A DNA stretch of 64,000 bases from contig JADHVC010000002.1 in assembly GCA_016784175.1 (NCBI GenBank), positions 330-64,329 of the forward strand, written 5' to 3'. The first letter of the stretch is position 1, and every line of letters starts with the position of its first letter. A program made the position numbers and the translations under genes. The notes below the pieces were generated by a model. It made no database searches. It saw only the letters and a program-made list of their open reading frames with translations, and was not told the origin of the DNA. The stretch is from Patescibacteria group bacterium (GTDB taxonomy: Bacteria; Patescibacteriota; Patescibacteriia; Patescibacteriales; BS150m-G62). Positions 1,296-61,838 of this stretch are shown piece by piece.

Positions 1296-2036
1296 ATGAC
1301 TATCCCTCACTACTATATTAAATTTATTGCATTCTTTGGTTGTCTATTTCTTCTCTCTATTTTGTTTTTTGTGTTTAATCGTGGTGCTAACGATGGTGTA
1401 AAGACCGTTCAGGTAAAAAATGAAGGTGCATTAACCGAAACTGCCCAAGAGAATAGTAAAAATGTTACAGTTGAGGTAAAAAATGAAGGTGCATTAACCG
1501 AAACTGCCCAAGAGAATAGTAATAATATTGTTGGAAAAAGTGAGCAAGATGTAAGCCCAGTGGTTGTAGATGAAGTTGTTACCATAAATATTGAAACTAT
1601 TAAATCAGAAGAAAATGACTATTTAACTGACGCTGAAAAAGAGGGTCTTGGTATTCGAAAAACAGTAATAGTAAAAGCATTAGAGCGTGATACTAATGGT
1701 CGTGTTTTGTCTTTTAAGATAGAAAAAGACCCTTTATTTATTGACTCCGATGAAGATGGTCTGTCAGACTCAGAAGAGGAAAATGAATTTGGTACCGATA
1801 AAAATAACTATGACACAGATGGTGATAATGCCTCCGACGGTGACGAAGTTATGAATGGCACTAATCCTCTTGTAAACGAAAATCTTCTAGACTCTGATAA
1901 CGACGGTCTTACTGATGCGCAAGAAATGGGTAAATACAAAACTGATAAAAATAATGCCGATACAGACGGAGACGGTTACTCCGATGGCGATGAAATAAAT
2001 GCTGGGTTTAATCCATTGGGCGAGGGTAAGTTATAA
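1296..2036 (+). CDS. Membrane-anchored protein with thrombospondin-type-3-like Ca-binding repeats
   Basis: N-terminal hydrophobic helix (FIAFFGCLFLLSILFFVF). 21-aa tandem duplication. Four DxDxDGxxDxxE units (DSDEDGLSDSEE, DTDGDNASDGDE, DSDNDGLTDAQE, DTDGDGYSDGDE). The stop codon TAA at 2034-2036 is the first 3 nt of a repeat-element fragment. Confidence 0.6.
   Translation: MTIPHYYIKFIAFFGCLFLLSILFFVFNRGANDGVKTVQVKNEGALTETAQENSKNVTVEVKNEGALTETAQENSNNIVGKSEQDVSPVVVDEVVTINIETIKSEENDYLTDAEKEGLGIRKTVIVKALERDTNGRVLSFKIEKDPLFIDSDEDGLSDSEEENEFGTDKNNYDTDGDNASDGDEVMNGTNPLVNENLLDSDNDGLTDAQEMGKYKTDKNNADTDGDGYSDGDEINAGFNPLGEGKL
1411..1522 (+). repeat. Intragenic tandem repeat, period 63 nt, two units
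   Basis: The 49-nt string AGGTAAAAAATGAAGGTGCATTAACCGAAACTGCCCAAGAGAATAGTAA occurs identically at 1411-1459 and 1474-1522. It encodes VKNEGALTETAQENS twice. Confidence 0.9.
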
Positions 2037-2070
2037 GCGAAAAAGTGATGCAGATATAGTGAGCAGTTAC
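2034..2070 (+). mobile_element. Fragment (right end, 37 nt) of the 189-bp foldback element
   Basis: TAAGCGAAAAAGTGATGCAGATATAGTGAGCAGTTAC matches the last 37 nt of the full copies (for example 39262-39298). Confidence 0.85.
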
Positions 2071-4056: not shown

Positions 4057-4074
4057 ATATAAAATTATTACGAC

Positions 4075-4764: not shown

Positions 4765-4785
4765 TATATTTCATGAATAAAAAAA

Positions 4786-6723
4786 ATGATTGATCCATTT
4801 AAATTTCAACAACAAGAAGCAGAAATTGCCGAGAAAAAAAAGTTGGTCGCAATAAAAGACGAAAAGCAAGTCGCACAAGCTGTTGAGTCAACGGAAGAAC
4901 TTGTAGAAGAGGAAAAGACCTATCGGAGGGGCGCTATCTCTATTCGAGATTTAATTGCCCCAGCTAGCATAAAAATAATGCCTGACTATTTACGGTTGGG
5001 GTCTAAATACGTGAGAACTATTTTTGTGGTTAATTATCCGCGTTATATTAGTGTTGGTTGGTTTACGCCGATTGTTAATTTAAACCAGACCTTTGATATT
5101 GCCATGTACTTTTACCCAATAAAAAGTTCTGTAATATTAGACCAACTGAAGAAAAAGGCCGGAGCAATGGAGGCTCAAATTCTAGCTGATGCGGAAAAAG
5201 GTGCAGCTCGTGATCCGCTTAGAGAAACCGCACTCCGCGATATTGAAGAATTACGCGATAATCTTACCCAGGGAACAGAAAAGTTTTTTCAATTTGGGCT
5301 TTATGTAACAATATATACCGAGTCAGAAGACGAGTTAGACAAGCTTTCAGATGAAATAGAAAGCCTATTTGGATCTCGTTTAGTTTATTCAAAAAAGGTG
5401 TTTTATCAATCTGAACAGGGTTTTAACTCTACTCTTCCACTTAGCAATGATGAGCTATATATAGTATTTAACATGAATTCATCGCCGGTTGCGTCTTCTT
5501 TTCCTTTTATGTCCTGTGACCTAACAAGCGACCACGGTGTGCTTTACGGTGTAAATAGACACAATAATAGTTTGATAATTTTTGATAGGTTTAGTTTGCA
5601 AAATGCTAATACTGTTGTGTTTGCTACATCTGGTGCTGGTAAAAGTTATGCTATCAAATTGGAAGTACTAAGAAGTTTAATGTTAGGAACAGATGTAATA
5701 ATTATTGATCCAGAGTACGAATATAAACACTTGTCCGATGCAGTTGGTGGTACATATATTAATATTTCATTAGCTAGTGAAAGCAAGCTTAATCCTTTTG
5801 ATTTACCTCGAGCTATCGGTGAGGAAGCTAAAGCAGAAGACATCATTAGAAGTGCCGTCATTACAATTAAAGGTCTAATAAAATTGATGGTTGGATCATT
5901 AACTTACGAAGAAGATTCAATAGTTGATAGAGCATTATTAGAAACTTATGCAAAAAAAGATATTACTCCCGAGAGCGATCTAACTAAAGTCGAAGTTCCA
6001 ATTATGCAAGATTTTTATGATCTTTTAGACGGCATGGAAGGTGGATCAAATATTGCATTAAGATTATCAAAATACACAGAGGGTACATTTGCTGGGTTAA
6101 TTAATAATCCCACCAATGTTGAAATGGACAATCAGCTTGTATCTTTTTCAGTAAGAGACTTAGAAGACGAATTAAGACCAATTGGAATATATACAATTGT
6201 AAACTATATCTGGAATGTAGTAAGGTCGGAAAGGAAAAAACGTATTCTTGTGATTGATGAGGCATGGTGGTTAATGCAAAGTGAAGATTCTGCTAAGTTT
6301 GTTTTTGCTTTAGTGAAGCGATGCAGAAAATATTATTTAGGTGTAACAACTATAACTCAAGATGTAAACGATTTTTTAACTTCCCCTTATGGTAAGGCGA
6401 TTGTAACGAACTCAAGTTTACAAATATTATTAAAACAATCTCCAGCTGCTATCGATCTAATCCAAAAAACATTCATGCTAACAGATGGTGAGAAATACTT
6501 ATTGTTAGAGTGTGGTATAGGTGAAGGAATATTCTTTGCAGGTAATAAGCATGCTGCTATCAAGATCGTGGCTTCTTATACAGAAGATCAACTCATCACT
6601 TCTGATCCTGGGCAATTAATGGCGATAGAGGGAGAAAAGAAGGAATTCGAAGAACATCAAAAGCAACTAAGGGGGGAAGCTGGTGAAGAGGGTGCGCCTG
6701 GTGTTGAGGACCTAGATATATAA
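4786..6723 (+). CDS. virB4: VirB4/TrsE-family type IV secretion ATPase
   Basis: Walker A is FATSGAGKSYAIK (GAGKS at nt 5632-5646). Walker B is RILVIDEAWWLM (nt 6241-6276). The region upstream of the ATPase (YVRTIFVVNYPRYISVGWFTPIVNL) is typical of VirB4. Confidence 0.85.
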   Translation: MIDPFKFQQQEAEIAEKKKLVAIKDEKQVAQAVESTEELVEEEKTYRRGAISIRDLIAPASIKIMPDYLRLGSKYVRTIFVVNYPRYISVGWFTPIVNLNQTFDIAMYFYPIKSSVILDQLKKKAGAMEAQILADAEKGAARDPLRETALRDIEELRDNLTQGTEKFFQFGLYVTIYTESEDELDKLSDEIESLFGSRLVYSKKVFYQSEQGFNSTLPLSNDELYIVFNMNSSPVASSFPFMSCDLTSDHGVLYGVNRHNNSLIIFDRFSLQNANTVVFATSGAGKSYAIKLEVLRSLMLGTDVIIIDPEYEYKHLSDAVGGTYINISLASESKLNPFDLPRAIGEEAKAEDIIRSAVITIKGLIKLMVGSLTYEEDSIVDRALLETYAKKDITPESDLTKVEVPIMQDFYDLLDGMEGGSNIALRLSKYTEGTFAGLINNPTNVEMDNQLVSFSVRDLEDELRPIGIYTIVNYIWNVVRSERKKRILVIDEAWWLMQSEDSAKFVFALVKRCRKYYLGVTTITQDVNDFLTSPYGKAIVTNSSLQILLKQSPAAIDLIQKTFMLTDGEKYLLLECGIGEGIFFAGNKHAAIKIVASYTEDQLITSDPGQLMAIEGEKKEFEEHQKQLRGEAGEEGAPGVEDLDI

Positions 6724-9456: not shown

Positions 9457-9479
9457 ATAATTACTCACTATATCTATAT
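9457..9479. mobile_element. Solo terminus relic (23 nt) of the foldback element
   Basis: ATAATTACTCACTATATCTATAT compared with the element terminus GTAACTACTCACTATATCTACAT (copy 59921-). About 20 of 23 positions match. Confidence 0.55.
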
Positions 9480-9528: not shown

Positions 9529-10644
9529 ATGGAGAATTTAATAAAAAATATTGAAATATTACGCGAGCAAGTTATTAAAACTCATACTGCTCTAGATATC
9601 GAAGGTAAAAAATCGGAGCTAAGAGATTTAAAGCGCCTCATTAGTGTGCCTGATTTTTGGAATAATCGTGAAAAGGCAGTAGAAGTTTCTAGAAAAGCAG
9701 AAGACTTAGAAAAGGTAACGGGTAAATGGGACAAGCTTCGACAGGACATAAGGTCGCTAGAAGAATTCGTTGCTTATGCCAGTAAAGAAGGGGATGATTC
9801 TGTTTATGACGAGTCGAATGCGATGTATGAAGAATATAAGCAGCTTTATGATGAGTTGGAATTCGGAGTACTTTTTTCAGGTAAATATGATGAAAGTAAC
9901 GCGGTCATTTCTGTGCATGCTGGTTCTGGTGGAGTTGATGCACAAGATTTCGCTCAAATTTTAGAAAGAATGTATTTGCGATATTGCGAGAAAAAGAAAT
10001 TCAAAGTGATGATGGTGGATAGGGTTGATGGGGGAGAGGCAGGCATTAAAAGCAGTTCTTTTGAAGTAAGGGGTAGTTTTGCTTATGGTAATTTGAAAGG
10101 TGAGGCAGGTATTCACAGGTTAGTGCGAATTTCACCATTTGACGCGGAGTCCATGCGACATACTTCATTTGCTTCGGTTGATGTTATTCCTGTTATCGAA
10201 GAAACACAAGATATTATTATTAATGAAAGTGACCTACGGATCGATACCTATAAGTCAGGCGGACCTGGTGGGCAAAGTGTGAACACGACCGACTCTGCTA
10301 TAAGGATTGTACATATTCCAACAAATACAACAGTTACTTGCCAGACAGAACGATCACAACATCAAAATAAGGAAACCGCTTTTAAAATTTTAAAATCAAA
10401 ACTTTATAAATTAGAGCAAGATAAACGAGAGGCCGAGGAAGCAAAGTTACGCGGAGAAGTTGAAAAAGCCGATTGGGGTAAGCAGATTCGGTCATATGTT
10501 ATGCAACCTTATAAGATGGTTAAAGACCATAGAACAAATTTTGAAACACAAGACATTGACGGTGTGCTAGAAGGAGAGATCGAAGGATTTATTGTAGCTT
10601 ATCTTAAGGGAGAGATCACAAGCGAAAAAATAATGCAGACATAG
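9529..10644 (+). CDS. prfB: Peptide chain release factor 2
   Basis: SPF tripeptide (RISPFD), GGQ motif (SGGPGGQSVNTTDSA) and RSQHQNKETA. One uninterrupted ORF with no internal TGA or frameshift site. Confidence 0.92.
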   Translation: MENLIKNIEILREQVIKTHTALDIEGKKSELRDLKRLISVPDFWNNREKAVEVSRKAEDLEKVTGKWDKLRQDIRSLEEFVAYASKEGDDSVYDESNAMYEEYKQLYDELEFGVLFSGKYDESNAVISVHAGSGGVDAQDFAQILERMYLRYCEKKKFKVMMVDRVDGGEAGIKSSSFEVRGSFAYGNLKGEAGIHRLVRISPFDAESMRHTSFASVDVIPVIEETQDIIINESDLRIDTYKSGGPGGQSVNTTDSAIRIVHIPTNTTVTCQTERSQHQNKETAFKILKSKLYKLEQDKREAEEAKLRGEVEKADWGKQIRSYVMQPYKMVKDHRTNFETQDIDGVLEGEIEGFIVAYLKGEITSEKIMQT

Positions 10645-10655
10645 TGAGCAGTTAC
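10621..10655. mobile_element. Fragment (terminal 35 nt) of the foldback element overlapping the prfB 3' end
   Basis: AGCGAAAAAATAATGCAGACATAGTGAGCAGTTAC matches element ends (compare 61804-61838, GCGCTCAAAAATAATACAGACATAGTGAGCAGTTAC). The prfB stop codon TAG (10642-10644) lies inside it. Confidence 0.75.
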
Positions 10656-13383: not shown

Positions 13384-13467
13384 GTAACTGCTCACTATGT
13401 CTGCATTATTTTTGAGCGCATATGGAATATGTAGTAATTTTTAGCAGAATTTAACTTAAAAAAAATT
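13384..13467 (+). mobile_element. Fragment (left ~84 nt) of the foldback element
   Basis: GTAACTGCTCACTATGTCTGCATTATTTTTGAGCGCATATGGAATATGTAGTAATTTTTAGCAGAATTTAACTTAAAAAA... then diverges from the consensus. Confidence 0.85.
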
Positions 13468-17103: not shown

Positions 17104-17292
17104 ATAACTGCTCACTATACCTGCATCACTTTTTCGCTTAGGATGGAATGTTGGGCAATTTTTTACGCACAATTTAACAAAAATTTTAAACTCGCTTCAC
17201 TCAAACATAAAATTTTTTAAGTTAAATTCTGCTAAAAATTACTACATATTCCATATGCGCTCAAAAATAATGCAGGTATAGTTAGCAGTTAC
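17104..17292 (-). mobile_element. Foldback MITE-like element, full copy (189 bp)
   Basis: ATAACTGCTCACTATACCTGCAT...ATGCAGGTATAGTTAGCAGTTAC. Reverse orientation relative to 39109-39298. No clear flanking direct repeat. Confidence 0.85.
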
Positions 17293-17340: not shown

Positions 17341-20300
17341 CTATCTTTTAGCTCCTGAGTAGGCTATTGCTCGGACTATATCCCAAGCAAGAGCGCTTTT
17401 AGGATTACCTTTGTATATATTCTTGAAACTCTTGATGGCTGCTTTCTCAGAATCTAAGTTGCGATTCGTTGGTCTTAATCCATAAGCTATAATTGTTACA
17501 GCTGCATCATCATGAGGGTTAATTCTATCGGGCACCCTCTTGTAGATAGTCTTGAATTCTTGGATAGCTCTTTCTTCTGAGGCCGCATTTCTTTGGTTTG
17601 TCCACCTACCGTTAGCTATTTTTATTACATCTTCCCAGTCTGTTAGTGTGGTTGGGAGTCTGTCGAATGCAGATTTAAAACTACTTACTGCACCGGCTCT
17701 TTCTCCGGCCCCAAGTTTAAGTGTGGTGAATGTGCCGTAGGTAATGAATTCGTTCATAGCAGTCTTTGATTCATCGCTAACCACTTGTTTCTTAACTAAT
17801 TCGGAAATATACTTGGTATTTGTAAGAGCTTCGCTTTCCAAATTTCTCTTTGTGTTGAATTTCGCAACGAATGCATCAATATTAGCTGCAAATACTTCTT
17901 TAGCTTCGCTAAGAATAGACTTAATTAAGTCAGAGTCAGATGTATTCGCTTGTTCTTGTGATTTGCTTTCTGTTGATGCTGCTTCTGCAACTTTTGCATC
18001 TATTGTTAATCTCGCAAGTGCATTTGCCTTGTCAACGATCGCTTGCCATGCTGGGATTAATCTATTTGTAGTTAATACGGTTGTTGTGCTTAAATTACCA
18101 TTAGCATCATACACTTGATAGGTTGGCGCTACATCTGAAACATAACCTCCTCCCCCTCCTCCTCCACCATTATTCGATGGAGCAACATATATTGCATTGC
18201 AACTATTGCCAGAAAGTTCATAACCATTATCGCAAGTTATTACACATGAATTATTTATACTACCGTTATTAACTGTTTTGTTAGAACAAACTTGAATTTC
18301 AGTCGAGGTAGCAGATTCATTATTCCCAGTATCCAATGCTGTGATCTGATAGTAATATACTGTAAACGCAGCTGTAGTCGCATCGGTGAATGTCGAAGTA
18401 GTAATGTCGATAACATTTACCATGTTTGTTGAACTAGCAGTAAATCCAGTTACTGCATCTCTATAAATATTATATTTTGCTAGATCAGGTTCAGTATTGT
18501 CATCCCAGTTAAGAACTACTGTTGTTCCGGTGCCTGATGTTTGACTTAAATTAGTTGGCGCAATAGGTGCAGTTACATCAGCGCAGAAATTACCATTTTT
18601 CGTAAAGCCTAGATTACAAGTTATTACACAATTATTATCAATACTTCCGTTAGCTACTGTGCTATTTGAACATAGTTGAAGTTCAGTGGCAATGACAGAT
18701 TCGTTACCGCTGTCGTCAGCTGCTGTAACTGTGTAGTAGTAGACTGTGAATGCTGCAGTAGTGGCATCAGTAAAGTTGGATGCTGTAACTTGGCTGCCAT
18801 TTACTTGATTAGCGATGTCAGCTGTGACCCCTGTCGATGTTGCGCGATAGACTTCATACTCTAATAGATCATTTTCAACATTATCTGCCCAATTAATAGT
18901 AACCGAAGTTCCATTGCCAGCTGTTTGACTTAGCCCCGTTGGAGCGTCTGGTGCTGTTGAATCGGTTGGAGTTGTAGCGCCAAAAATTGTTAAGTGATCT
19001 GTGTTAGAGTTTAAGGCGATTTTGTAATCGGCATAAGTATTTGCATTGCCAGCTAGTGCTGTAGCAAAAGCGCTGAAGTCAGTTACCGTTGTCCAATCTG
19101 TATCATTCACATCAGCTTTTGTATACGCAGTTTTCGTAGTGGACATTGCAACCCAGTTACTCAAAGAAGTATCCCAATAAGAGTTAGTAAGTGTAGATAA
19201 CTTTGCATAATTGCTTAACGCTGCGCTTATTTCATCTTTATAATAAACTAATTCAATTTCAATGTCATTACTTAGGTTAGTTATTGCTGCTCCAGACGAA
19301 TCATTAGCAGTAATTTCTTTACCTATTCCACCTAAAGGACTAGCTGTACTTGTTTGTGAAACATTGCTTACTTCTTTCGAGGTTATGCTTCCACTAGTTG
19401 CTTCACTTCCAAGTGCATTCGGCGGAACAATAATTCTTATTCCAGATCCACCTGCGCCACTATTATCTAATGAACCTCCACTTGATGGGGTGATAGATTG
19501 AGCTTTAAGTTTTGTGTCCCAGTTAGCAATCGGCGTTAATCTAATGTTATTACTATTTGAGTCCGAACCACTAATTGTTATTGTCCCGAAAGTTGATTGA
19601 GAATATCCATCGGCGACCGCCTTTAGTCTGTAAGTACTATCTACGACTGGTATAGAAAATGTTCCATCCGACTTGGTTGTAGCACCTATTCTTTTTTTAT
19701 TGATCGTGTCTTCTACCCAAACCCAACCATCTAGAACCTCTTCGCCTGCATCATAGTCGGTGTCGCTATTTAAGTCGTTGTATATAGTTCCAGTGATGCT
19801 TCTATTAGCGCTTACTAACTCATAATCAGCAGCAGTATCAGCACTGATCACGATAGCTGTTGGAGGTTGTGGTATGTAGCCGGTAGCTTCAACGCCTGTT
19901 TTGTAATTACCATTTTTAACTGTGATGGAGTAAGCTCCAGTTGCGTCAGTAGTGTCTCCTAGGTAGTCACCAAGAGCTTCGTTCCCAACCCATACCCATG
20001 CGTTCTCGATTGGACCAGAAGTGTCAGTGATTGTGCCGGTTAGTGTAAATATCTCTGTAGCGCTATCTGGTAAAACGAAAGTAACTGTTGAATCTCCGTT
20101 GAATGTGACTGGGTTTGTAGCTGGCTCAATTGATCCTATGCCAGGAATGTGCATATGGAATAGGTAGGTTCCATTTTTTAATTTGATTGCTGCATTTGAA
20201 GCAAGAGTAGATAGTTTTATGTTTTTATGGAATTCATTTGTAGTGCTATCGATATTAATGATAGCTTCCTGTGAGCTAAGTCCATTCGTGAATGCAAGCG

Positions 20301-23300
20301 TTACAGTATTTAGCGCACCGCTAGCTAAAGTAACATCAACGCCACTTGTATTGGCACTTAAGTTAAGGTTGGCTGGACTAGCTGGATAATCGTCAGCATC
20401 AGTTCTTTCGATTTCACCATAGCTCGCTGTCCATGTATCGATTCTATATATACCAGCTGGTGCTTTTATGGAATACATACCAGAGCTATTCGTTTGACCA
20501 ATATATTCTTCTCCGCTTAATTCGCCTCCTGCAGTATATTTCAATGCTCTAACTGGAGTGTTTGCTTGAACTTCATTATTGACAGTGATAGTTCCGCTAA
20601 TAGTATAGTAAGTTAGTGTTGTATCTGGAGTAATATTTAATGTTTGATTCTCACCATTAATAGTTACAGTTTCAGTTGTCGATAATCCAAACTCTGGAAT
20701 ATTAGCTTCTACGCTCCAAGTGCCGTTATCAACATAAAGAATGTAATTACCACTTGAATCTGTGATAGTTTTTGCCTGTCCTAGCCCATCTTGTTTGGTT
20801 GCCCAAATTGGAGCTAGAATAACCGCGTTAGTACCGTCTGTAACTTTACCAGAAATGGTGTAGCTTGGCTTGATAATTTTAAATATTAATTTATTTGCAG
20901 CCGTAATTAATGCATTATTTTCATAAACATCAGCCGTTGCATTACCATCTACATTGTTAATATCATTAGCTTTAACTTTAACATTTTTGTTAGTCTTGAT
21001 TGGTAAGCCAGCTTTAAATACTCCAACCGAATAATCACCATCGTTAGCTAATTTTAAAATAAATTTACCATCAGTGTCCGTTGTTGTATAAGACCCTTGA
21101 GTTGTCCCGTTTGGTTGATAAGCATTAACCTGAGCGTTGCTTATTCCAACTCCTGCCCCATCAAGTACGAAACCGACAATCTCTTTAGAAGTGCTTGTAA
21201 GTGTAAGATTAAAGCTTTGAGCGCTAGATCCGTCTGACTCTACATTAATTGGACGAGGTGCAACCCAATTAGGCATACTTACTTTTTCGATTGATGTTAT
21301 TTTTTCGCGCGCTGGCAAGACTTGTATTTTCCAAATGCCAGCCTTAAGATATAGCACTTCTGCAATTGCGCCTCCCGTACCAGTTACTTTCTTTGTGATA
21401 TTTAGTTCAGGCGAATTTGCAACGATATCAACATTCTCGCCATTTGGGATGCCTGTAATATTAACGGTAATTGCTGCAACTGAACCTGCATCAGCTCGTT
21501 TGAATGTAATATTCTTTGGGTTTACACCTGCACTAATAGTGATTGGTTCAGGAGCACTTATGCCAATATAATCTGCGTTGCTACTATCAAGAGTGATAGA
21601 TTGATCTGTAAATATTTGATAATTGCTAAGTGGAAGGCTAGAGAAAGAATAATTTCCAGTACCGTCATTAGCTAGACTGACTATAGTTTCCAATGGACCA
21701 GTTGTTGGTGAATCCAAATAAATTTTTATAGTGTCGCTACCGTCAGTGTCGGCAGGATTAATCCCTAAGATATTTCCACTTAAACTAGCACTACCAGCTG
21801 GTTTAATAAAGAAGGGGAGTCCAGCAATCGTTTCGCTCAAGTAACCATTTTCATCTAAGATCTTCATGTCGACAGAATATCCGCCAGTGTCAGGACCTCT
21901 AGGAATAGACGAATTAACAATTCCAGCTAAGTCAAAGTGTAAATAATCCTTAATTGGAGTAGTTCCAGTCACGCCAAGGTCAACCGTAATTATGTTAGCA
22001 CTTGTATCAATCGTAACACCGTCATTATTTGCCCCGCCAGAAGTTTCTGCTTCAGTTGAGAAGCTGACAGTCCCACTATTAACTTCATTTAAGTCATTAT
22101 TTGCAGGTGAATATACATCCTTTTTAGCGTTATTAATATTAAACCCTTTTGGAAAAGTTAATAATATTTTGTAATTGTCTTTAATTTGTTTATTTGTAGG
22201 AAGGTTAACAAAATAAGTTGTAATTTGACTAGCTAGGGCGTTCATAGGGATAGCTCCCGCTTTCATTATTCCCATGTCAGACATAGAGAGAGTTGCTCCT
22301 TCGCCGCTACTATTAGGAACGAGTTCGCCTTTAGTGCTGCTGCTAGACTGGATAGGTGCTTGAAACGAGGTTGTTCCGCTTAATATATTGCCCGAAAGAT
22401 CAGTCGCCCCACTACCATCTACATTAGCGCTTGCCATATCAACATAGATATTTTTACCGCTAACATTTGCAGTCTGTAGTCCCAAATTTTTTATTACAAC
22501 TGTGTTGCTAACTGCATCATAAGTAAAGCTAGAATTAGTAGTGCTAAGGTCAATATTTGTGCCAGATCCGACTACAGTTTCAGCATCACCCCATCTAAGT
22601 TTATAATTTGTTAGGTTAAGCACTGATGATGACCATTTTTGTGTGTTTGCAGCTGTTGATGCATTCATTGGTTCAGAAAATGTAATAGCTACACCGTTGT
22701 CATCTGCATTGCTAAACATTATCTTTGGCGCAATTGTATCTAGCGTAGAGTTTGTTTGAAAGTAAACCACAGTACTGCTAGCTAAATAGTTACCAACCAT
22801 ATCGGCTAGACCATTCGAGCCGCCAATAATTTTTAAAGCATAATTTGCATTTGGGGCCAATACTTGACTTGGAATAAAATTCAATGAATAGGTCTCCGCA
22901 TTGTAGTTAATATTACCACTAATTTGTGATGTTCCTCTTAGTAAAGAAATTGTATTTGAATTAATTGTTGTTGGATTAATGCCTTCTGAAAATTGAAGAA
23001 TCAGTGAACCAGGATTAATCGATATATTTGTAGCGTTGTTGGCTGGCCAAGTGCCAAGAATGGTAGGTCTGGTACTATCAACAACAGAAGTTGTATTTAC
23101 TTTAAAGCGACTTGCAAACACAACGCTATTCGCAGTATTTCTGCTAATATTAGGATCACCCATTGGTATTCCACTAGCGCTTTTTAATGCCCCGGTTGCT
23201 ATTATTTTGTAACTACCTGCTATTAAATTCGAACTTGGTGTAATTGTTATATTTTTCTTTGTGCTATCAATACTAACTGTTGAGCTAACAAGAGTCTCTA

Positions 23301-26046
23301 TTTCGACATTATCACTAATTGTAGTTTTTAAAAGTTTAATATTACCACTTGCAGTGATAGAGCTAGTATCCATAGGATCAGAGAAGCTGATATTTATCTT
23401 TGTATTTGGTGCAATATTAGACATTCCATCGCTAGGAGTCACCCCAATAATTCTAGGTGGTGTCATGTTGCCTTGTCCAAAATTAGTCCACGCATCTTCT
23501 GTACTAAAATCAGCTCCAGTAGTAAATGTAATAGTATAGTTTCCATTCGAATTGTTACCGACTATGCTATTGCCAGACATGTCTCTAATATTGCCACTAA
23601 TTATTAGAGTGTAAGTTTTATTAGCTTCTAAACCTTCACTTGGTACCGTAATAACTCCTAGGTGAGTATTGTGAGAAAATCCATACGCAACATTGTCGTC
23701 ATGATTGTCGCTATGGACAACAGTGTATCCTGCCACTGGATTGTTGATTGGATTAGTTTGATCGGCACTTAATACTACATTGCTCGTTGTAAATAAGGTA
23801 GAATCAATATCTTCGGAAAAAACAACAAATATTTTATAACTACTATCCTTGGGGGGTACGCCGGTTTGGCTATCAGTTGGGAAGGTCGCAACGATTATAG
23901 GTTTAGTGTTATCACCTGTTGATCCACCACCTGTCCCAGTGTAAAGGACTTTGTTTTGACCTGTAATGTTTGAGCTTCCGACAAAAATGTCCGAGATCGA
24001 TTCTTCAAAATAATTATCCTTAGATATCACGAGGTTGTAAGGGCGATTGTTCTTGACATCTAAAGTGTAATTGCCACTTGAATCTGTAGTAGCAGAAGCA
24101 CCAGTGCCCTCTGCAAATACGAGCGCATTAGAAATACCAGCACCTTGTTCGTCTACAATGGTCCCAGATATAGTGCTTGTATCGCCCCAAGCACTCGAGT
24201 CTTCAACTTTAATAACTAAAGGTGATGATTCTGCTTCTTCGTGTGTTATTGCAAGTGGGTCAGCTGAAAGTTGAGTTTCGCCATTGTTAGTTAATACTTG
24301 CAAATGGTAAAGTATTCCGTTTGTGATTGCGTCAGTATCATCGATATGCGCCTGAGGGATTGTGAATTTAAAGTAACCATTCGATTCTCTAGAGCCAATA
24401 ATATGGTAATGTTTTGGGTCCAGATGGTTCATGACTCCTGTGCCGCTGTCGATAGCGTAATGTAATTCTGAGCTAATATTGATGGTCGGTGTTCTTGGAT
24501 CACTAGCTTGGATAAATATATCAAGGTCAGATCCAGCTTTTGCAATGTTTATTGGCATGTGCTTTATCATTGGACCGTTAGCAGCTTGTCCACCATAATT
24601 CGAGAAATTTGGTTGTTCGGTTGGTGATGCAGAGCTTTGCGGGTTAATAGTAGTCCTTTTTACAAAATCAAGTGCATTATTGTCAGCATCCCACCCATTA
24701 CCCATGCTTTCATCTTTCCCACCACTTATCATGTTGACCAATATTGATGTCCCAAAGGCCTTTCTTTCTAGTGATTCATTGTCGCTAAGAGCACTAGCAG
24801 CAAAGCTTTCTGCATACTCTGCAGAACCCCAACCTAGTTTGTCAGCTTCTTTTGTTCCAGTAAATAATCGTATGTGACCACCTTCATCAGTTAAGCCAAT
24901 AACAGACTTGCAGTAATCTAGTGTACTCGCCGGACAAGTCATATCTGCTGCGCCATAAAATTTTGCTGACCCAATTAAGTAGTAGCTATAAGGCTCAATG
25001 TATGTGTTGGCTGGAAGCGTAACCTTTGTACTCCATGACTCAGAGGTGGCAGTACTGTATTGTAACATCCATCCACCTATATTCACCCTTGTACTTCCAG
25101 AGTTATATAGCTCGATGAATTCTGACCAAGCTTCTCCGTTAATTCTTGTAGCTAATTCCGATATCCTTACATTAATCGGATAAGTAATACTTTTTACTGT
25201 CTCTACTCCAAGATTACCAGCGATATCTGTAATATTAGGCGAAATTGTTAGTGTAGTATCTTCGGTTGGAATTACTTTGCTCGATATTATTCTGTAAACA
25301 TTGTCTGAAATTTTGTCAACTTGATGAATAGCTATTTCATTATTAAAGGTATAATTGCTTGCATTTTTAGCTAAAATTTCTTTTACAGCTTCGGAGAATT
25401 TTACATCAACCGATATGGGGTTAACTAAGTTAGCATCTTCTACCGTTGGTTGAATAGAGTCTATAGTTATTGCGCTTGATGTTATTGTAGACAATGGCTC
25501 AGCACCATCATCACTTAAAATTACTCCACCGGGCACTATTGTAACTCTTATTTCGTGGTCAGCAGAGCTAGCTGCTGCTGTTTGAATTGTAAGATAAAAG
25601 GTTTTACTAGTGCCAATCGAAATGGAATTCTTTAAAAAAAGATAAATTTCACTTTCACTGTACCAGTCACTAGATGAATCCAGTATTACTAAGCTATCAT
25701 TCGAGTCAAACCCATTGGCTAAACTTTCAGATTCTTGATAAAGAGAAACGCCACTCAATGAACTGTCGTTAATACTTTTTAAATCTGCTTGCGAAAAGCC
25801 TGTTCCATTAAGTTGAACAATTATATCTGTTAGTTTTCTACCAGGCTTACCCGCTATATCTATTTGAAAAACGGCTCTTGAGCTAGAGTCTTTTTTTATT
25901 TTATTGTTCGTTTGATCAATCAAATCAGTAATAACTACCGATCCATCATTAGCACTCGCCTGCATGGGTGCTAAAAAAATTACTAATAAAAAACACACCA
26001 TTAAGCGTGCGAAATGATACCATGTTCGTTTTGTTTGTTTGATCAT
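17341..26046 (-). CDS. Giant (2901 aa) multidomain secreted surface protein
   Basis: Signal peptide (LMVCFLLVIFLAPMQASA). Lamin-tail-domain-like segment (RISELATRINGEAWSEFIELYNSGSTRVNIGGWMLQY). Several SbsA/Big-like Ig modules (PTILGTWPANNATNISINP...). At least five CarboxypepD_reg-like modules (ISGKVTDGTNA...TDSSGNYILYV). Two FN3 plus 4-Cys modules. A G8 tract. Three C-terminal ~35-40-aa repeats ending AYSGAKR. Confidence 0.85.
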   Translation of the reverse strand: MIKQTKRTWYHFARLMVCFLLVIFLAPMQASANDGSVVITDLIDQTNNKIKKDSSSRAVFQIDIAGKPGRKLTDIIVQLNGTGFSQADLKSINDSSLSGVSLYQESESLANGFDSNDSLVILDSSSDWYSESEIYLFLKNSISIGTSKTFYLTIQTAAASSADHEIRVTIVPGGVILSDDGAEPLSTITSSAITIDSIQPTVEDANLVNPISVDVKFSEAVKEILAKNASNYTFNNEIAIHQVDKISDNVYRIISSKVIPTEDTTLTISPNITDIAGNLGVETVKSITYPINVRISELATRINGEAWSEFIELYNSGSTRVNIGGWMLQYSTATSESWSTKVTLPANTYIEPYSYYLIGSAKFYGAADMTCPASTLDYCKSVIGLTDEGGHIRLFTGTKEADKLGWGSAEYAESFAASALSDNESLERKAFGTSILVNMISGGKDESMGNGWDADNNALDFVKRTTINPQSSASPTEQPNFSNYGGQAANGPMIKHMPINIAKAGSDLDIFIQASDPRTPTINISSELHYAIDSGTGVMNHLDPKHYHIIGSRESNGYFKFTIPQAHIDDTDAITNGILYHLQVLTNNGETQLSADPLAITHEEAESSPLVIKVEDSSAWGDTSTISGTIVDEQGAGISNALVFAEGTGASATTDSSGNYTLDVKNNRPYNLVISKDNYFEESISDIFVGSSNITGQNKVLYTGTGGGSTGDNTKPIIVATFPTDSQTGVPPKDSSYKIFVVFSEDIDSTLFTTSNVVLSADQTNPINNPVAGYTVVHSDNHDDNVAYGFSHNTHLGVITVPSEGLEANKTYTLIISGNIRDMSGNSIVGNNSNGNYTITFTTGADFSTEDAWTNFGQGNMTPPRIIGVTPSDGMSNIAPNTKINISFSDPMDTSSITASGNIKLLKTTISDNVEIETLVSSTVSIDSTKKNITITPSSNLIAGSYKIIATGALKSASGIPMGDPNISRNTANSVVFASRFKVNTTSVVDSTRPTILGTWPANNATNISINPGSLILQFSEGINPTTINSNTISLLRGTSQISGNINYNAETYSLNFIPSQVLAPNANYALKIIGGSNGLADMVGNYLASSTVVYFQTNSTLDTIAPKIMFSNADDNGVAITFSEPMNASTAANTQKWSSSVLNLTNYKLRWGDAETVVGSGTNIDLSTTNSSFTYDAVSNTVVIKNLGLQTANVSGKNIYVDMASANVDGSGATDLSGNILSGTTSFQAPIQSSSSTKGELVPNSSGEGATLSMSDMGIMKAGAIPMNALASQITTYFVNLPTNKQIKDNYKILLTFPKGFNINNAKKDVYSPANNDLNEVNSGTVSFSTEAETSGGANNDGVTIDTSANIITVDLGVTGTTPIKDYLHFDLAGIVNSSIPRGPDTGGYSVDMKILDENGYLSETIAGLPFFIKPAGSASLSGNILGINPADTDGSDTIKIYLDSPTTGPLETIVSLANDGTGNYSFSSLPLSNYQIFTDQSITLDSSNADYIGISAPEPITISAGVNPKNITFKRADAGSVAAITVNITGIPNGENVDIVANSPELNITKKVTGTGGAIAEVLYLKAGIWKIQVLPAREKITSIEKVSMPNWVAPRPINVESDGSSAQSFNLTLTSTSKEIVGFVLDGAGVGISNAQVNAYQPNGTTQGSYTTTDTDGKFILKLANDGDYSVGVFKAGLPIKTNKNVKVKANDINNVDGNATADVYENNALITAANKLIFKIIKPSYTISGKVTDGTNAVILAPIWATKQDGLGQAKTITDSSGNYILYVDNGTWSVEANIPEFGLSTTETVTINGENQTLNITPDTTLTYYTISGTITVNNEVQANTPVRALKYTAGGELSGEEYIGQTNSSGMYSIKAPAGIYRIDTWTASYGEIERTDADDYPASPANLNLSANTSGVDVTLASGALNTVTLAFTNGLSSQEAIINIDSTTNEFHKNIKLSTLASNAAIKLKNGTYLFHMHIPGIGSIEPATNPVTFNGDSTVTFVLPDSATEIFTLTGTITDTSGPIENAWVWVGNEALGDYLGDTTDATGAYSITVKNGNYKTGVEATGYIPQPPTAIVISADTAADYELVSANRSITGTIYNDLNSDTDYDAGEEVLDGWVWVEDTINKKRIGATTKSDGTFSIPVVDSTYRLKAVADGYSQSTFGTITISGSDSNSNNIRLTPIANWDTKLKAQSITPSSGGSLDNSGAGGSGIRIIVPPNALGSEATSGSITSKEVSNVSQTSTASPLGGIGKEITANDSSGAAITNLSNDIEIELVYYKDEISAALSNYAKLSTLTNSYWDTSLSNWVAMSTTKTAYTKADVNDTDWTTVTDFSAFATALAGNANTYADYKIALNSNTDHLTIFGATTPTDSTAPDAPTGLSQTAGNGTSVTINWADNVENDLLEYEVYRATSTGVTADIANQVNGSQVTASNFTDATTAAFTVYYYTVTAADDSGNESVIATELQLCSNSTVANGSIDNNCVITCNLGFTKNGNFCADVTAPIAPTNLSQTSGTGTTVVLNWDDNTEPDLAKYNIYRDAVTGFTASSTNMVNVIDITTSTFTDATTAAFTVYYYQITALDTGNNESATSTEIQVCSNKTVNNGSINNSCVITCDNGYELSGNSCNAIYVAPSNNGGGGGGGGYVSDVAPTYQVYDANGNLSTTTVLTTNRLIPAWQAIVDKANALARLTIDAKVAEAASTESKSQEQANTSDSDLIKSILSEAKEVFAANIDAFVAKFNTKRNLESEALTNTKYISELVKKQVVSDESKTAMNEFITYGTFTTLKLGAGERAGAVSSFKSAFDRLPTTLTDWEDVIKIANGRWTNQRNAASEERAIQEFKTIYKRVPDRINPHDDAAVTIIAYGLRPTNRNLDSEKAAIKSFKNIYKGNPKSALAWDIVRAIAYSGAKR

Positions 26047-26204: not shown

Positions 26205-26270
26205 GTAACTGCCCGCTATATCTGCATTATTTTTGAGCGCATATGGAATATGTAGTAATTTTTAGCAGAT
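26205..26270 (+). mobile_element. Fragment (left ~66 nt) of the foldback element
   Basis: GTAACTGCCCGCTATATCTGCATTATTTTTGAGCGCATATGGAATATGTAGTAATTTTTAGCAGA. It is truncated 4 nt from the stop codon of 26274..27176(-). Confidence 0.85.
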
Positions 26271-26273
26271 TAT

Positions 26274-27176
26274 TTATTCGATGCCTAACTCTATTTTATA
26301 TTTTTTTATCCAATCTGGTAAGTTTATCTTTGGCGTCCAATTTAAAAGTTCGTGCGCTAAAGTATTGTTCGCTAATGTTTCGCGCGGTTCAATTCTAGCT
26401 GGTATGTGAATCGAGTCTCCACCTATCATCAAAGCTACTTCATTAACGCTATAATTCTTTCCTCGTCCAATATTAATCACTTCTCCTCTACCAACATTTT
26501 TACTTTTAGCGGCAAGTATATTGGCCTCTACTACATCGATAACGCTGGTAAAATCTCTTTTTTGTTCACCATCGCCAGTAATTGTTAGGGGTTGACCTTT
26601 TAGTCTTTGGTTTGCAAAAATTCCCATAACTAAACAATAAGCGCCTTCGAGCAACATACGTTGTCCATAAACATTAAAATAGCGTAAAGATACCGTTGGT
26701 AAATTATATAGGTCGCTAAATAAACGACAATAAAGTTCTCCTATATATTTTTGAAGTCCATATGGACTCATAGCCTTGGTTGGCATATTTTCATGCAGTG
26801 GCATTTCGACTTGATCTCCATATGCAGAAGACGATGCACTATATATTACTTTTTTTACTTTTGCATCACGAGCTGCTGTAAGAACGCTAAGAGTTCCATT
26901 TAAATTTATATCATTTGATGCAATGGGATCTTTAATGGAAGGCTCAACTCTTGCGAAAGCAGCAAGGTGAAAAACATAATCGACACCTTCAAATAAAGGT
27001 TTAATTTTAGCAAAATCACGCATATCTAATTTGTAAAATTCAGCTTCTTTGTTAATATTCTCCTCTAATCCTGTCGACAAATTATCAATAATAATTACTT
27101 CATTTCCTTGTTTAATTAATTCATCAGTTAAATTGGAGCCAATAAAACCTGCTCCTCCTGTAATAAGACATTTCAT
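26274..27176 (-). CDS. NAD-dependent sugar epimerase/dehydratase (extended SDR)
   Basis: Rossmann motif ITGGAGFIGSNL. Catalytic S (ASSSAYG). YxxxK (YGLQKYIGE). 300 aa. Confidence 0.85.
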   Translation of the reverse strand: MKCLITGGAGFIGSNLTDELIKQGNEVIIIDNLSTGLEENINKEAEFYKLDMRDFAKIKPLFEGVDYVFHLAAFARVEPSIKDPIASNDINLNGTLSVLTAARDAKVKKVIYSASSSAYGDQVEMPLHENMPTKAMSPYGLQKYIGELYCRLFSDLYNLPTVSLRYFNVYGQRMLLEGAYCLVMGIFANQRLKGQPLTITGDGEQKRDFTSVIDVVEANILAAKSKNVGRGEVINIGRGKNYSVNEVALMIGGDSIHIPARIEPRETLANNTLAHELLNWTPKINLPDWIKKYKIELGIE

Positions 27177-27207: not shown

Positions 27208-27396
27208 GTAACCGCTCACTGTGTCTGCATTATTTTTAAGCGCATATGGAATATGTAGTAATTTTTAGCAGAACTTAACTTAAAAAATTTTATGTTTGAG
27301 TGAAGCAAGTTTAAAATTTTTGTTAAATTGTGTGTAAAAAATTGCACAATATTCCATCCTAAGCGAAAAAGTGATGTAGATATAGTGAGCAGTTAG
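27208..27396 (+). mobile_element. Foldback MITE-like element, full copy (189 bp)
   Basis: GTAACCGCTCACTGTGTCTGCAT...ATGTAGATATAGTGAGCAGTTAG. No clear flanking direct repeat. Confidence 0.85.
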
Positions 27397-39108: not shown

Positions 39109-39298
39109 GTAACTGCTCACTATACTTGCATTATTTTTGAGCGCATATGGAATATGTAGTAATTTTTAGCAGAATTTAACTTAAAGAATTTTATGTTTGA
39201 GTGAAGCGAGTTTAAAATTTTTGTTAAATTGTGCGTAAAAAAATTGCCCAATATTCAATCCTAAGCGAAAAAGTGATGCAAGTATAGTGAGCAGTTAC
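39109..39298 (+). mobile_element. Foldback MITE-like element, full copy (190 bp)
   Basis: GTAACTGCTCACTATACTTGCAT...ATGCAAGTATAGTGAGCAGTTAC. The first 23 nt at the two ends are perfectly complementary. Flanks are AAAATATT and AAAAGATT (7/8). Confidence 0.9.
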
Positions 39299-41551: not shown

Positions 41552-41602
41552 AATATTCCATCCTAAGCAAAAAAAGTGATGTAGGTATAAGTGAGCACTT
41601 AC
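41552..41602 (+). mobile_element. Fragment (right ~51 nt) of the foldback element
   Basis: AATATTCCATCCTAAGCAAAAAAAGTGATGTAGGTATAAGTGAGCACTTAC. Confidence 0.8.
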
Positions 41603-45222: not shown

Positions 45223-45410
45223 GTAACTACTCACTATGTCTGCATTATTTTTGAGCGCATATGGAATAAGTAGTAATTTTTAGCAGAATTTAACTTAAAA
45301 AATTTTTGTTTGAGTGAAGCGAGTTTAAAATTTTTATTAAATTGTGCGTAAAAAATTGCCCAATATTCCATCCTAAGCGAAAAAGTGATGTAGATATAGT
45401 GAGTAGTTAC
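45223..45410 (+). mobile_element. Foldback MITE-like element, full copy (188 bp)
   Basis: GTAACTACTCACTATGTCTGCAT...ATGTAGATATAGTGAGTAGTTAC. No clear flanking direct repeat. Confidence 0.85.
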
Positions 45411-49289: not shown

Positions 49290-49490
49290 ATAACTACTCA
49301 CTATGTCTGCATTATTTTTAAGCGCATATGGAATATGTAGTAATTATTAGCACAATTTAACTTAAAAAAAATATGTTTGAGTGAAGCGAGTTTAAAATTT
49401 TTGTTTAAAATTTTTGTTAAATTGTGCGTAAAAAATTGCCCAATATTCCATCCTAAGCGAAAAAGTGATGTAGATATAGTAAGTAGTTAC
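49290..49490 (+). mobile_element. Foldback MITE-like element, full copy (201 bp, internal 13-nt duplication)
   Basis: ATAACTACTCACTATGTCTGCAT...ATAGTAAGTAGTTAC. Contains an extra TTTAAAATTTTTG unit. AAAAAAAAC flanks both sides (49281-89 and 49491-99; low complexity). Confidence 0.85.
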
Positions 49491-52859: not shown

Positions 52860-53048
52860 GTAGATACTCACTATACCTCCATTATTTTTGAGCGCATATG
52901 GAATATGTAGTAATTTTTAGCACAATTTAACCTAAAAAATTTTATGTTTGAGTAAAGCGAGTTTAAAATTTTTGTTAAATTGTGCGTAAAAAATTGCCCA
53001 ATATTCCATCCTAAGCGAAAAAGTGATTCAGGCATAGTGAGTATCTAC
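52860..53048 (+). mobile_element. Foldback MITE-like element, full copy (189 bp) with co-varying termini
   Basis: GTAGATACTCACTAT...ATAGTGAGTATCTAC. Both termini carry the same variant (GATAC instead of ACTGC). Flanks are TTTTTTAG and CTTTTTAG (7/8). Confidence 0.9.
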
Positions 53049-55354: not shown

Positions 55355-56743
55355 ATGATAAATTATTTAATCATAAAAATTAAAAATAGTCAAGAGCTAG
55401 CCTTGTTTTCTGTTACTGCTTTGTTGCTCTTCTTGCTCATGTTCTTTTTGGGTACTACAACGCTCGCAATTAAATTCATCCTAATTATTATTATTGGCTT
55501 GATTCCAGTGTTCTTTAAGAAGCCAATTATTTTTTTATATTTTTTGTTTCTTGTTACGCCAAGTTTACGCGTTCTTACTCGAGATGAACTAATATTCCAA
55601 AATTATGGAATCAATTTTAACGTATTAATTCACTTGTCTCTGCTATTTTACGGATCTTTGATGGCTTGGCGGTCAAGAAGTCAGTTACTAGTTTATGTTA
55701 AAAAGTATCAATTTATTAGTTATTTTGCTGTTTTTTTATTTTTATCTGGTGCAAGTATTTTTTATTCGCTAGATAGGCCAAGTACATTAGATCAGTTTGT
55801 TAGGTTATGTAGTTCGTCTTTTGGAATCTTTTTCTTTGCCTTACTCGCAATAAACACAAGAAAAGATTTTTATAATCTTATTTATTGCATAGTGCTAGGT
55901 TTAATTGTTCCTAGTATAGTTGGGTACTACGAATTTTTTGCGGGTACGGGTTGGTATGACCCGTCGATGAGAACTTATAGGATCGACAGTACTTTTACAC
56001 ACCCAGTTATTTTTTCTGGATATCTATTGTTGGCTATGCCAATTTTATATGCTTTAGTGGAGGACAAGATTAAAAATAGAGTAAAAGTTGGTTTGTTCGC
56101 GTTCTTAGGTAATAACCTATTCTTTGTGATTGCAAGCTTGACACGTGGTATTTGGAATGCAGGGGCTGCAATGTTACTTGTTTTTGGTGGCATAAAGAGC
56201 AGGAAGACACTTGTGGCTGGAATTTTAATCTTTGTTCTGACTTTTATGTTTATCGAACCTCTCAAGCAAAGAGTTTATGATACATTTAGACCTAGTCCAG
56301 ATAGTTCTTTTCAAACAAGACTAGATATTATAAAGACAACCTTTCCTGCTTTTTGGAGTGCACCATTTTTGGGTTATGGTTTTGGTGCATTTGAAGTTAT
56401 CCACTTGCGTTACAATGAAGATGCACGTTTTTGGCCGTCGCTACAAGCACATAACGATTACCTAAGAATTTTAATTGAGCTTGGTGTAATAGGTGCAATT
56501 CTATATCTATCTATTTTTATTTCTTTGTTATTGCTTATTAGAAGGTTATATTTAGGTGCTGATAGTAAAGAACTTCAAAATTATTATTTCAGTCTAGTTT
56601 TAATTTGGATAGCGGCTGGTACAATTTCCTTAAGTGATAATTTTTTAAGAATAGTAGAGTTCCAACAGATCGCCTGGGCTTACACTGGAGCGGTCTTAGC
56701 CTTTGGGTTAGTAAAGAAAGAAAGTACGCACAAAAAAAGATAG
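55355..56743 (+). CDS. O-antigen ligase/polymerase family (Wzy_C) membrane protein
   Basis: At least 10 hydrophobic helices. LQAHNDYLRILIELGVIGAILYLSIF is the Wzy_C signature. Confidence 0.75.
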   Translation: MINYLIIKIKNSQELALFSVTALLLFLLMFFLGTTTLAIKFILIIIIGLIPVFFKKPIIFLYFLFLVTPSLRVLTRDELIFQNYGINFNVLIHLSLLFYGSLMAWRSRSQLLVYVKKYQFISYFAVFLFLSGASIFYSLDRPSTLDQFVRLCSSSFGIFFFALLAINTRKDFYNLIYCIVLGLIVPSIVGYYEFFAGTGWYDPSMRTYRIDSTFTHPVIFSGYLLLAMPILYALVEDKIKNRVKVGLFAFLGNNLFFVIASLTRGIWNAGAAMLLVFGGIKSRKTLVAGILIFVLTFMFIEPLKQRVYDTFRPSPDSSFQTRLDIIKTTFPAFWSAPFLGYGFGAFEVIHLRYNEDARFWPSLQAHNDYLRILIELGVIGAILYLSIFISLLLLIRRLYLGADSKELQNYYFSLVLIWIAAGTISLSDNFLRIVEFQQIAWAYTGAVLAFGLVKKESTHKKR

Positions 56744-56932
56744 GTAACTACTCACTATACCTGCATCACCTTTTCGCTTAGGATGTAATATTGGGCAATT
56801 TTTTACGCACAAGTTAACAAAAATTTTAAATTCGCTTCACTCAAACATAAAATTTTTTAAGTTATATTCTGCTAAAAATTACTACATATTCCATATGCGC
56901 TCAAAAATAATGCAGGTATAGTGAGTAGTTAC
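56744..56932 (-). mobile_element. Foldback MITE-like element, full copy (189 bp) with perfect 8-bp flanking direct repeat
   Basis: GTAACTACTCACTATACCTGCAT...ATGCAGGTATAGTGAGTAGTTAC. AAAGATAG occurs at 56736-56743 and again at 56933-56940. The left copy contains the TAG stop of 55355..56743. Confidence 0.92.
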
Positions 56933-56980
56933 AAAGATAGTGTAGTTAGTCTTAGTAAGAATAAAAATAGCGAATATAAA

Positions 56981-57021
56981 AAAAAGAGGCGATCAGTCTA
57001 AGACTGATCGCCTTTGTTGTT
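56981..57021. terminator. Bidirectional rho-independent terminator
   Basis: GGCGATCAGTC (56988-98) pairs with GACTGATCGCC (57002-12), loop TAA. An A-run lies upstream and TTTGTTGTT downstream. Confidence 0.8.
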
Positions 57022-59920: not shown

Positions 59921-60109
59921 GTAACTACTCACTATATCTACATCACTTTTTTACTTAGGATGAAATATTGGGCAATTTTTTACACACAATTTAACAAAAA
60001 TTTTAAACTTGCTTCACTCAAACATAAAATTTTTTAAGTTAAATTCTGCTAAAAATTACTACATATTCCATATGCGCTTAAAAATAATGCAGATATAGTG
60101 AGCACTTAC
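59921..60109 (-). mobile_element. Foldback MITE-like element, full copy (189 bp)
   Basis: GTAACTACTCACTATATCTACAT...ATGCAGATATAGTGAGCACTTAC. Flanks are TAACCTTA and TAATCATA (6/8). Confidence 0.85.
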
Positions 60110-61649: not shown

Positions 61650-61838
61650 GTAAATACTCACTATATCTGCATCACTTTTTCGCTTAGGATGGAATATTGG
61701 GCAATTTTTTACGCAAAATTTAACAAAAATTTTAAACTCGCTTCACTTAAACATAAAATTTTTTAAGTTAAATTCTGCTAAAAATTACTACATATTCCAT
61801 GTGCGCTCAAAAATAATACAGACATAGTGAGCAGTTAC
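61650..61838 (-). mobile_element. Foldback MITE-like element, full copy (189 bp)
   Basis: GTAAATACTCACTATATCTGCAT...ATACAGACATAGTGAGCAGTTAC. Flanks are CTCTCTCT and CACTTTCT (6/8). Confidence 0.85.

Follow-up and report, generated by a model that had tools for sequence, protein, structure and literature searches.

A 189-bp miniature inverted-repeat family with probable ISBst12-type IS66 parentage in a Patescibacteria genome

A 189-bp repeat at the 3′ end of a Wzy_C-family gene

The DNA analyzed here (the window) is a 64,000-nucleotide stretch of contig JADHVC010000002.1 from a Patescibacteria bacterium and has a GC content of 35%. Toward its right end, a gene for an O-antigen ligase/polymerase-like protein (Pfam Wzy_C) is followed immediately after its stop codon by a 189-bp repeated element, which belongs to a family of MITEs (miniature transposable elements with inverted repeats). 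The first 23 bases of this copy, at 56744, are GTAACTACTCACTATACCTGCAT and the last 23 are the exact reverse complement. The same octamer stands on either side, giving the order AAAGATAG / GTAACTACTCACTATACCTGCAT ... ATGCAGGTATAGTGAGTAGTTAC / AAAGATAG across 56736–56940 and bearing out the 8/8 match that a first-pass annotation had reported. The same annotation placed the insertion on the stop codon of the gene, and this also holds; because the open reading frame (ORF) at 55355–56743 ends with TAG at 56741–56743, the left octamer contains its stop codon. A strong, bidirectional hairpin resembling an intrinsic terminator lies downstream at 56985–57015, and the element therefore sits between stop and terminator, in the 3′ untranslated region (UTR) of the Wzy_C-family gene.

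BLAST of the element against the window located nine full copies and six fragments, or 15 insertions in 64 kb, with each fragment retaining one terminus (Table 1). The coordinates first proposed for the nine full copies stood, except that the copy given as 27208–27395 extends to 27396 and has its first G mutated. The terminal inverted repeat (TIR) is 23 bp long and starts with GTAACTRCTCAC; GTAA is present and the canonical GCG is absent. A 22-nt TIR pattern, with up to three mismatches allowed, occurs 23 times in the window, compared with 0.03 occurrences expected by chance. One further full copy (L006) was identified in a JGI metagenome, beside a tRNA gene and with 98.9% identity to the family consensus. 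The element lacks an ORF with a start codon, matches no Rfam family at gathering thresholds, and contains no tRNA or tmRNA detectable with ARAGORN. Its two halves align with each other at about 70% identity, making the full length an imperfect palindrome, and a long end-to-end hairpin is predicted (−54.9 and −74.4 kcal/mol; z = −8.8 and −11.3).

Table 1. Coordinates of the MITE copies, their fragments, and associated features (positions in the window unless a contig is named)
Feature	Position	Strand	Remarks
MITE full copy, 189 bp	56744..56932	+	TIR-L 56744-56766, TIR-R 56910-56932, 23/23 complementary; imperfect palindrome along whole length
Left 8-bp target-site duplication AAAGATAG	56736..56743	+	carries TAG stop of Wzy_C-family gene
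Right 8-bp target-site duplication AAAGATAG	56933..56940	+	
Wzy_C-family gene (O-antigen ligase/polymerase-like)	55355..56743	+	Pfam Wzy_C; MITE immediately after stop codon
Intrinsic-terminator-like hairpin, bidirectional, strong	56985..57015	.	downstream of 56744 MITE
Full MITE copy	17104..17292	+	A in place of the original first base; duplication absent (0/8)
Full MITE copy	27208..27396	-	first base mutated; no duplication (1/8)
Full MITE copy	39109..39298	-	flanks AATCTTTT / AATATTTT, 7/8
Full MITE copy	45223..45410	-	no duplication (3/8)
Full MITE copy, 201 bp	49290..49490	-	13-nt internal tandem duplication (AACAAAAATTTTA twice); poly-T flanks, 7/8 (9/9 as run)
Full MITE copy	52860..53048	-	flanks CTAAAAAG / CTAAAAAA, 7/8; variant GTAGAT in both arms
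Full MITE copy	59921..60109	+	flanks TAACCTTA / TAATCATA, 6/8
Full MITE copy	61650..61838	+	flanks CTCTCTCT / CACTTTCT, 6/8
MITE left-end fragment, about 36 nt	2034..2070	-	adjoins stop of ORF 1296-2036
Solo TIR remnant	9458..9479	+	2 mismatches to TIR pattern
MITE left-end fragment	10620..10655	-	provides last codons and TAG stop of release-factor gene 9529-10644
MITE right-end fragment, 80 nt	13384..13463	-	
MITE right-end fragment, 69 nt	26205..26273	-	adjoins stop of gene 26274-27176
MITE left-end fragment, 51 nt	41552..41602	-	
Right-end/8 bp/left-end junctions of full-length elements	L007 381-412; L011 1691-1722; L112 about 2652-2690; L117 about 1561-1596; L110/L116/L118 right flanks		

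For a comparison of flanks, all copies were set in one orientation, and the nine window copies and L006 were scored together as ten. Left and right octamers of the window copies match at 8, 7, 7, 7, 6, 6, 3, 1, and 0 of 8 positions and those of L006 at 6 of 8, so that 7 of the 10 copies reach at least 6/8. The six highest scores in the window belong to the copies for which direct repeats had been described at the outset, one of the 7/8 values coming from the 49290 copy, whose poly-T flanks are of low complexity and carry little weight; the copies at 17104, 27208, and 45223, described as having none, score 0/8, 1/8, and 3/8. Across assumed duplication lengths of 4 to 12 bp, identity between the flanks peaked at 8 bp only (0.64, versus 0.36–0.45 at other lengths). 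Flanks cross-paired between different copies are just 0.35 identical at 8 bp, which shows that each copy has its own signal and that a shared target motif is not its source. Permutation of the flank pairings assigned P = 4e-4 to the summed matches; seven copies with at least 6/8 never occurred in 200,000 permutations. Octamers 189 bp apart in the window reach 6/8 or better in 0.9% of cases, close to the roughly 1% estimated beforehand. The initial proposal that these elements are true non-autonomous transposons is thus supported: they are short (189 bp), non-coding, bounded by 23-bp TIRs, present in multiple copies (including one in another metagenome), and flanked by copy-specific 8-bp repeats well beyond chance expectation.

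Full copies occupy four of seven convergent intergenic regions (six of seven when fragments are included), 5 of 30 tandem regions, and none of seven divergent regions. Between 17069 and 61854, almost all intergenic regions longer than 220 bp contain a MITE. Seven of the nine full copies lie within 39–62 kb, a glycan-synthesis cluster rich in glycosyltransferase, Wzy, and Wzz genes. The 7.7 kb that precede the window contain no further copy.

Full-length relatives and the ISBst12 group of the IS66 family

A search of JGI metagenomes with the TIR pattern returned two hits, the MITE copy L006 and an insertion sequence (IS) of the IS66 family, L005; neither viral contigs nor species-representative genomes gave a hit. 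The right end of the 1.6-kb L005, GTAACTGCTCACTATCCCTGCAT, is identical to the MITE TIR at 22 of 23 bases. L005 carries a single ORF of 488 amino acids (aa) encoding an IS66-family DDE transposase that passes both the Pfam and the NCBIfam cut-off (Pfam PF03050, E = 3.6e-39; NCBIfam NF033517, 200 bits against a cut-off of 180). This transposase has 223 homologs at E ≤ 1e-10; among those listed, almost all are about 480 aa long and almost all lie on contigs of 1.5–2 kb, with one named as deriving from a Parcubacteria genome. Multi-copy insertion sequences typically end up on short contigs in short-read assemblies and drop out of metagenome bins.

Seven full-length relatives were examined, with both ends recovered in six and the right end only in the P0045 element (L012/L013). 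Every recovered end in all seven starts with GTAACTGCTCAC. The relatives are 1.45–1.73 kb long and encode one transposase of 463–488 aa; the only other gene called inside any of them is a 49-aa ORF in L016. They have no room for tnpA plus tnpB, an organization that fits the ISBst12 group (PMC12898284) and not canonical IS66. A clean 8-bp duplication, TCTTTAAT, flanks the P0086 element in seven independently assembled contigs (L015, L016, L018–L022), another, TTAATGCC, is visible in L113 and L117, which cover a single site from its two sides, and the flanks in L118 match at 7 of 8 positions. Because flank pairs on short contigs are often chimeric (L014, L017, L111, L115, L116, and L119), only pairs confirmed across assemblies were used.

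In several short contigs, moreover, a full-length IS66-type element is followed on its right, exactly 8 bp beyond its end, by a further left end starting GTAACTGC... (Table 1). The partner is the same IS in L007, L011, and L112 and a different sequence in L117 and L110/L116/L118, and the spacer in L011 is identical to its left-flank octamer, TTTTAAAA. Such junctions suggest tandem dimers, circular junctions, or insertion targeted beside resident ends. No paper connecting IS66 with circular intermediates was found in the open-access literature searched.

Searched by tblastn against plasmids, the L005 transposase matches IS66-family transposases. The strongest matches (E = 4e-26 to about 1e-13) come from cyanobacteria, haloarchaea, Aeromonas, Bacillus, and Deinococcus, the top one being a Calothrix plasmid gene annotated "transposase IS66" (E = 4e-26); canonical ISPre3 is matched at E = 6e-9 only. 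On plasmids of Deinococcus and Bacillus, IS66 elements with a single gene have GTAACTRCTCAGC ends and perfect 8-bp duplications, and ISDge4 is alike. The element on Deinococcus wulumuqiensis pDrdI is 1454 bp long with one 449-aa ORF, GTAACTGCTCAGCA at both ends, and GCCGCTTG on both flanks, and the one on Bacillus thuringiensis p101287 has GTAACTACTCAGC at both ends and GAAAAATG on both flanks. A simple inverted-repeat scan did not recover the ends of ISKpn15 on the Aeromonas plasmid. ISDge4 of Deinococcus geothermalis, a single-ORF member of the ISBst12 group that has been observed transposing, has the TIRs GTGACTACTCAGCA and GTAACTGCTCAGCA and the 8-bp direct repeat CCTCGATG (PMC12898284). 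The 11-nt sequence GTAACTRCTCA stands at the two ends of IS66-family elements in uncultured candidate phyla radiation (CPR) metagenomes as well as in Deinococcus and Bacillus, and 8-bp duplications accompany it in each case. Since it recurs in the Deinococcus and Bacillus elements and in ISDge4, the termini of the MITE are a signature of the ISBst12-type branch.

An alignment of transposases from uncultured bacteria, Deinococcus, and Bacillus has three invariant candidate catalytic residues, D255, D307, and E433 (contexts DET, D..Y, and NN.AER), along with three invariant cysteines. The CPR-type transposases are only about 24%–27% identical to those of Deinococcus and Bacillus (27%, E = 1e-22, for L005 and the Deinococcus protein).

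The MITE shares GTAACTRCTCA... at both ends and an 8-bp target duplication with the ISBst12 group (ISDge4 and the pDrdI and p101287 elements), whose full-length members have a single DDE transposase ORF without tnpA or tnpB. It differs from them in having no transposase, in its length (189 bp versus about 1.45–1.7 kb), and in its inverted repeat (IR) beyond base 11 (CAC TAT... versus CAGCA...). Canonical three-ORF elements (IS66, IS679, ISPsko1, and others) likewise have 8-bp direct repeats, IRs starting with GTAA, and a PF03050 DDE transposase, but their IRs read GTAAGCG... in place of GTAACTR..., and their tnpA and tnpB are missing from the relatives found here. The published description of the family gives IRs of 20–30 bp starting with GTAAGCG and 8-bp direct repeats (PMC11946415). 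The first-pass annotation had attributed the repeat to IS66 on the basis of GTAA termini and 8-bp duplications; elements with an IS66 transposase and the same ends support that attribution, which is refined in that the termini are GTAACTRCTCA and not the canonical GTAAGCG.

In its general form the repeat resembles other bacterial MITEs. Correia, RUP, and ERIC elements are likewise short, non-coding, multi-copy, and intergenic, with TIRs and a target duplication; the host here, a Patescibacteria bacterium with a reduced genome, is unlike those of the MITEs compared. MITEPsy1 of Pseudomonas syringae has the same set of features, with a duplication of the type made by its parent family and termini that match a resident or related IS (PMC3189936). 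It differs in its IS5-like parent and 4-bp duplication (PMC3189936).

Origin, sequence variation, and alternative explanations

On this evidence, the 189-bp repeat is very probably a MITE derived from a single-ORF IS66-family element of the ISBst12 group. Several observations weigh against this. By tblastn, no IS66 transposase or relic of one was detected in the window or in the ~72 kb of the same contig. L005, the closest partner, comes from an unrelated metagenome, and its left end has only the first 12 nt in common with the MITE; nucleotide similarity between MITE and IS is restricted to about 25 terminal bases. Three of the nine window copies have no duplication, and the existing duplications, at 9 mismatches in 56 positions, have diverged more than the interior of the element (nucleotide diversity, 0.043). 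Finally, no empty site or presence/absence polymorphism was seen; identical insertions are present in all assemblies recovered for this population (ERZ24794645, ERZ24794647, and Logan ERR13319542/3).

Of the follow-up suggested by the first-pass annotation, a search for a full-length partner and one for empty sites, these results thus provide only half: a partner of the expected type was found in other metagenomes and not in the window or the ~72 kb of the same contig, and the search for empty sites found none. Exact-protein look-ups of the flanking genes returned the same population only, with identical insertions (ORF 20–1246 had no record), and clusters at 90% identity have 1–3 members only. 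The proteins of the window are identical to GenBank entries with ISS03_ locus tags and are matched as well in the ENA assemblies ERZ24794645 and ERZ24794647. The best DnaE relatives among species-representative genomes are Patescibacteria metagenome-assembled genomes with 58%–63% identity, and because identity does not exceed 63%, the representatives in GTDB are too distant to supply empty sites. Short-read contigs of this population end at MITE copies. Upstream of the window, the ERZ24794647 contig (L121, 1812–5012) differs in gene content from the ERZ24794645 contig (L120), with a stretch of about 3.2 kb without called genes in L121; there is therefore some structural variation between these two assemblies of the population.

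The structure of the element points to how it may have arisen. Both MITE arms resemble the right end of the IS more than the left. The transposase ORFs of L005 and L007 run into the right IR and stop at the TAG in ...GGATAGTGAGC (...KLMQG* and ...ELMEG*), and one frame of the MITE stays open over its whole length until it stops at that position in the TIR (...KIMQI*). From these matching ends we infer an origin from the IS right end. The MITE would then consist of two inverted copies, roughly 95 nt each, of a sequence resembling that end, with a relic of the transposase stop codon inside its terminal repeat, and fold-back of two inverted right ends would be the simplest reading of this arrangement.

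Mobility of the MITE in this genome is suggested by its duplications. An IS66-family DDE transposase supplied in trans would bind the GTAACTRCTCACTAT... termini, insertion into AT-rich intergenic DNA would proceed through cuts staggered by 8 bp, and gap repair would yield the 8-bp duplication. Before insertion, the site at 56744 would have held one octamer, ...CACAAAAAAAGATAGTGTAGTTAG...; the target octamer AAAGATAG contained the Wzy_C stop codon, and the duplication therefore left the gene intact. The copies appear to be moderately old, with duplications decaying or, in three copies, lost and with six copies truncated, and their survival seems biased to 3′ ends and convergent intergenic regions.

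These signs of age also fit a family of the same IS66/ISBst12 derivation that is now a dead relic, its transposase lost from the lineage and its copies only decaying or recombining. We regard this as a genuine possibility, if not the favored one. The ~72 kb of contig without a transposase and the lack of insertion polymorphism among three assemblies agree with it. The data cover ~72 kb only, however, and multi-copy IS are usually lost from bins, the relatives here lying nearly all on 1.5–2 kb contigs; moreover, one copy has a perfect 8/8 duplication together with a 23/23 TIR, and divergence in the interior is low.

Variation was measured on an alignment of ten MITE copies. Although TIRs are usually expected to be the best-conserved part of a MITE, nucleotide diversity is 0.151 in the termini versus 0.043 in the interior, a difference of about 3.5-fold (P about 1e-5). 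Private substitutions are 2.3-fold denser (P = 0.014) and shared variants 9-fold denser in the termini. Changes mirrored on both arms of one copy were seen three times, compared with 0.1 expected; they are GTAGAT in the 52860 copy and, in the 39109 copy, a T at position 18. These patterns, together with the more diverged duplications and the confinement of compensatory pairs to the TIR, do not suit simple neutral decay. Possible explanations are sub-lineages in which the two ends co-vary, both having to be bound by one transposase; template switching between the arms of the hairpin; and gene conversion or selection that keeps the interior uniform.

A stronger version of the last point is that the interior is maintained, by gene conversion or by selection as an insulator or stabilizer of 3′ UTRs or convergent transcription, in which case a streamlined CPR genome would have domesticated the repeat as a structural module. 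The grounds for it are an interior less variable than the termini and duplications, the end-to-end hairpin, and the occurrence of the repeat at six of seven convergent junctions, but we consider it doubtful. RNAalifold found compensatory pairs only in the 23-bp terminal stem, whereas interior changes disrupt predicted pairs. Selection on an interior RNA structure was considered and is not supported, there being no compensatory pairs outside the TIR.

It is very unlikely that the MITE was mobilized by another family that makes 8-bp duplications (such as ISL3, IS256, IS1595, or IS6) and resembles IS66 at GTAAC by coincidence. The likeness to IS66 elements does extend over the terminal 12–25 nt only, and no transposase of any family was found in the window or the ~72 kb of the same contig. 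Against this, the TIR search yielded nothing beyond another MITE copy and one IS66-family element, GTAACTRCTCA is the recurrent end sequence, accompanied in each case by 8-bp duplications, of IS66-family elements in CPR metagenomes, Deinococcus, and Bacillus and is also published for ISDge4 (PMC12898284), and no element of a different family was seen with these ends.

The least credible alternative, a structured intergenic repeat (REP/REPIN-like, a small RNA gene, or a terminator module) spread by recombination or a hairpin-recognizing Y1 transposase, with flanking repeats due to chance or target preference, would suit the long hairpin, the placement in 3′ and convergent intergenic regions, and an interior more conserved than the termini, but it is countered by flanking repeats that are copy-specific and exactly 8 bp long (the cross-pairing controls for target preference), by the absence of an Rfam match, by compensatory changes confined to the terminal 23-bp stem, and, for the REP/REPIN (RAYT/Y1) type, by termini common to DDE-type IS66 elements. 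REPIN-type mobility is not known to make target duplications.

Context of the family and other features of the window

Read as a MITE of ISBst12-type descent, the repeat is an ordinary MITE whose kind and IS family are both known; the new points are the particular repeat family, its host, and its descent from an ISBst12-type IS66 element. Among the open-access papers listed, none described an IS66-derived MITE, and the literature searched contained no paper on IS66 elements or MITEs in CPR bacteria and none linking IS66 with CPR mobile elements. The result provides a concrete, testable pairing of MITE and IS for the single-ORF branch of IS66, which has been little studied. It also shows that a Patescibacteria genome, usually deemed streamlined, can bear a dense load of miniature transposons (about 15 insertions per 64 kb) that fills most of the long intergenic regions of the window. 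These repeats break short-read assemblies at every copy, which is relevant to the binning and finishing of CPR genomes.

Some MITE sequence has become part of, or adjoins, neighboring genes. The last eight codons and TAG of a release-factor gene (PCRF and RF-1 domains) come from a truncated MITE left end (10620–10655), and the RF-1 domain match of the protein stops at residue 335 of 371. On the minus strand, 17341–26046 encodes a predicted 2901-aa protein with LTD, CarboxypepD_reg, and Big_5 domains that has MITE sequence at both ends of its gene and diverged 90-nt internal repeats at 18233 and 18617. The ORF at 1296–2036, which has a weak Pfam match to TSP3_bac, contains two tandem 63-nt repeats that are 94% identical (1404–1529). 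Farther along, 3631–6723 holds a cluster resembling type IV secretion/conjugation genes, including PrgI, a TraC-like protein, and a P-loop TraG/DUF87 ATPase.

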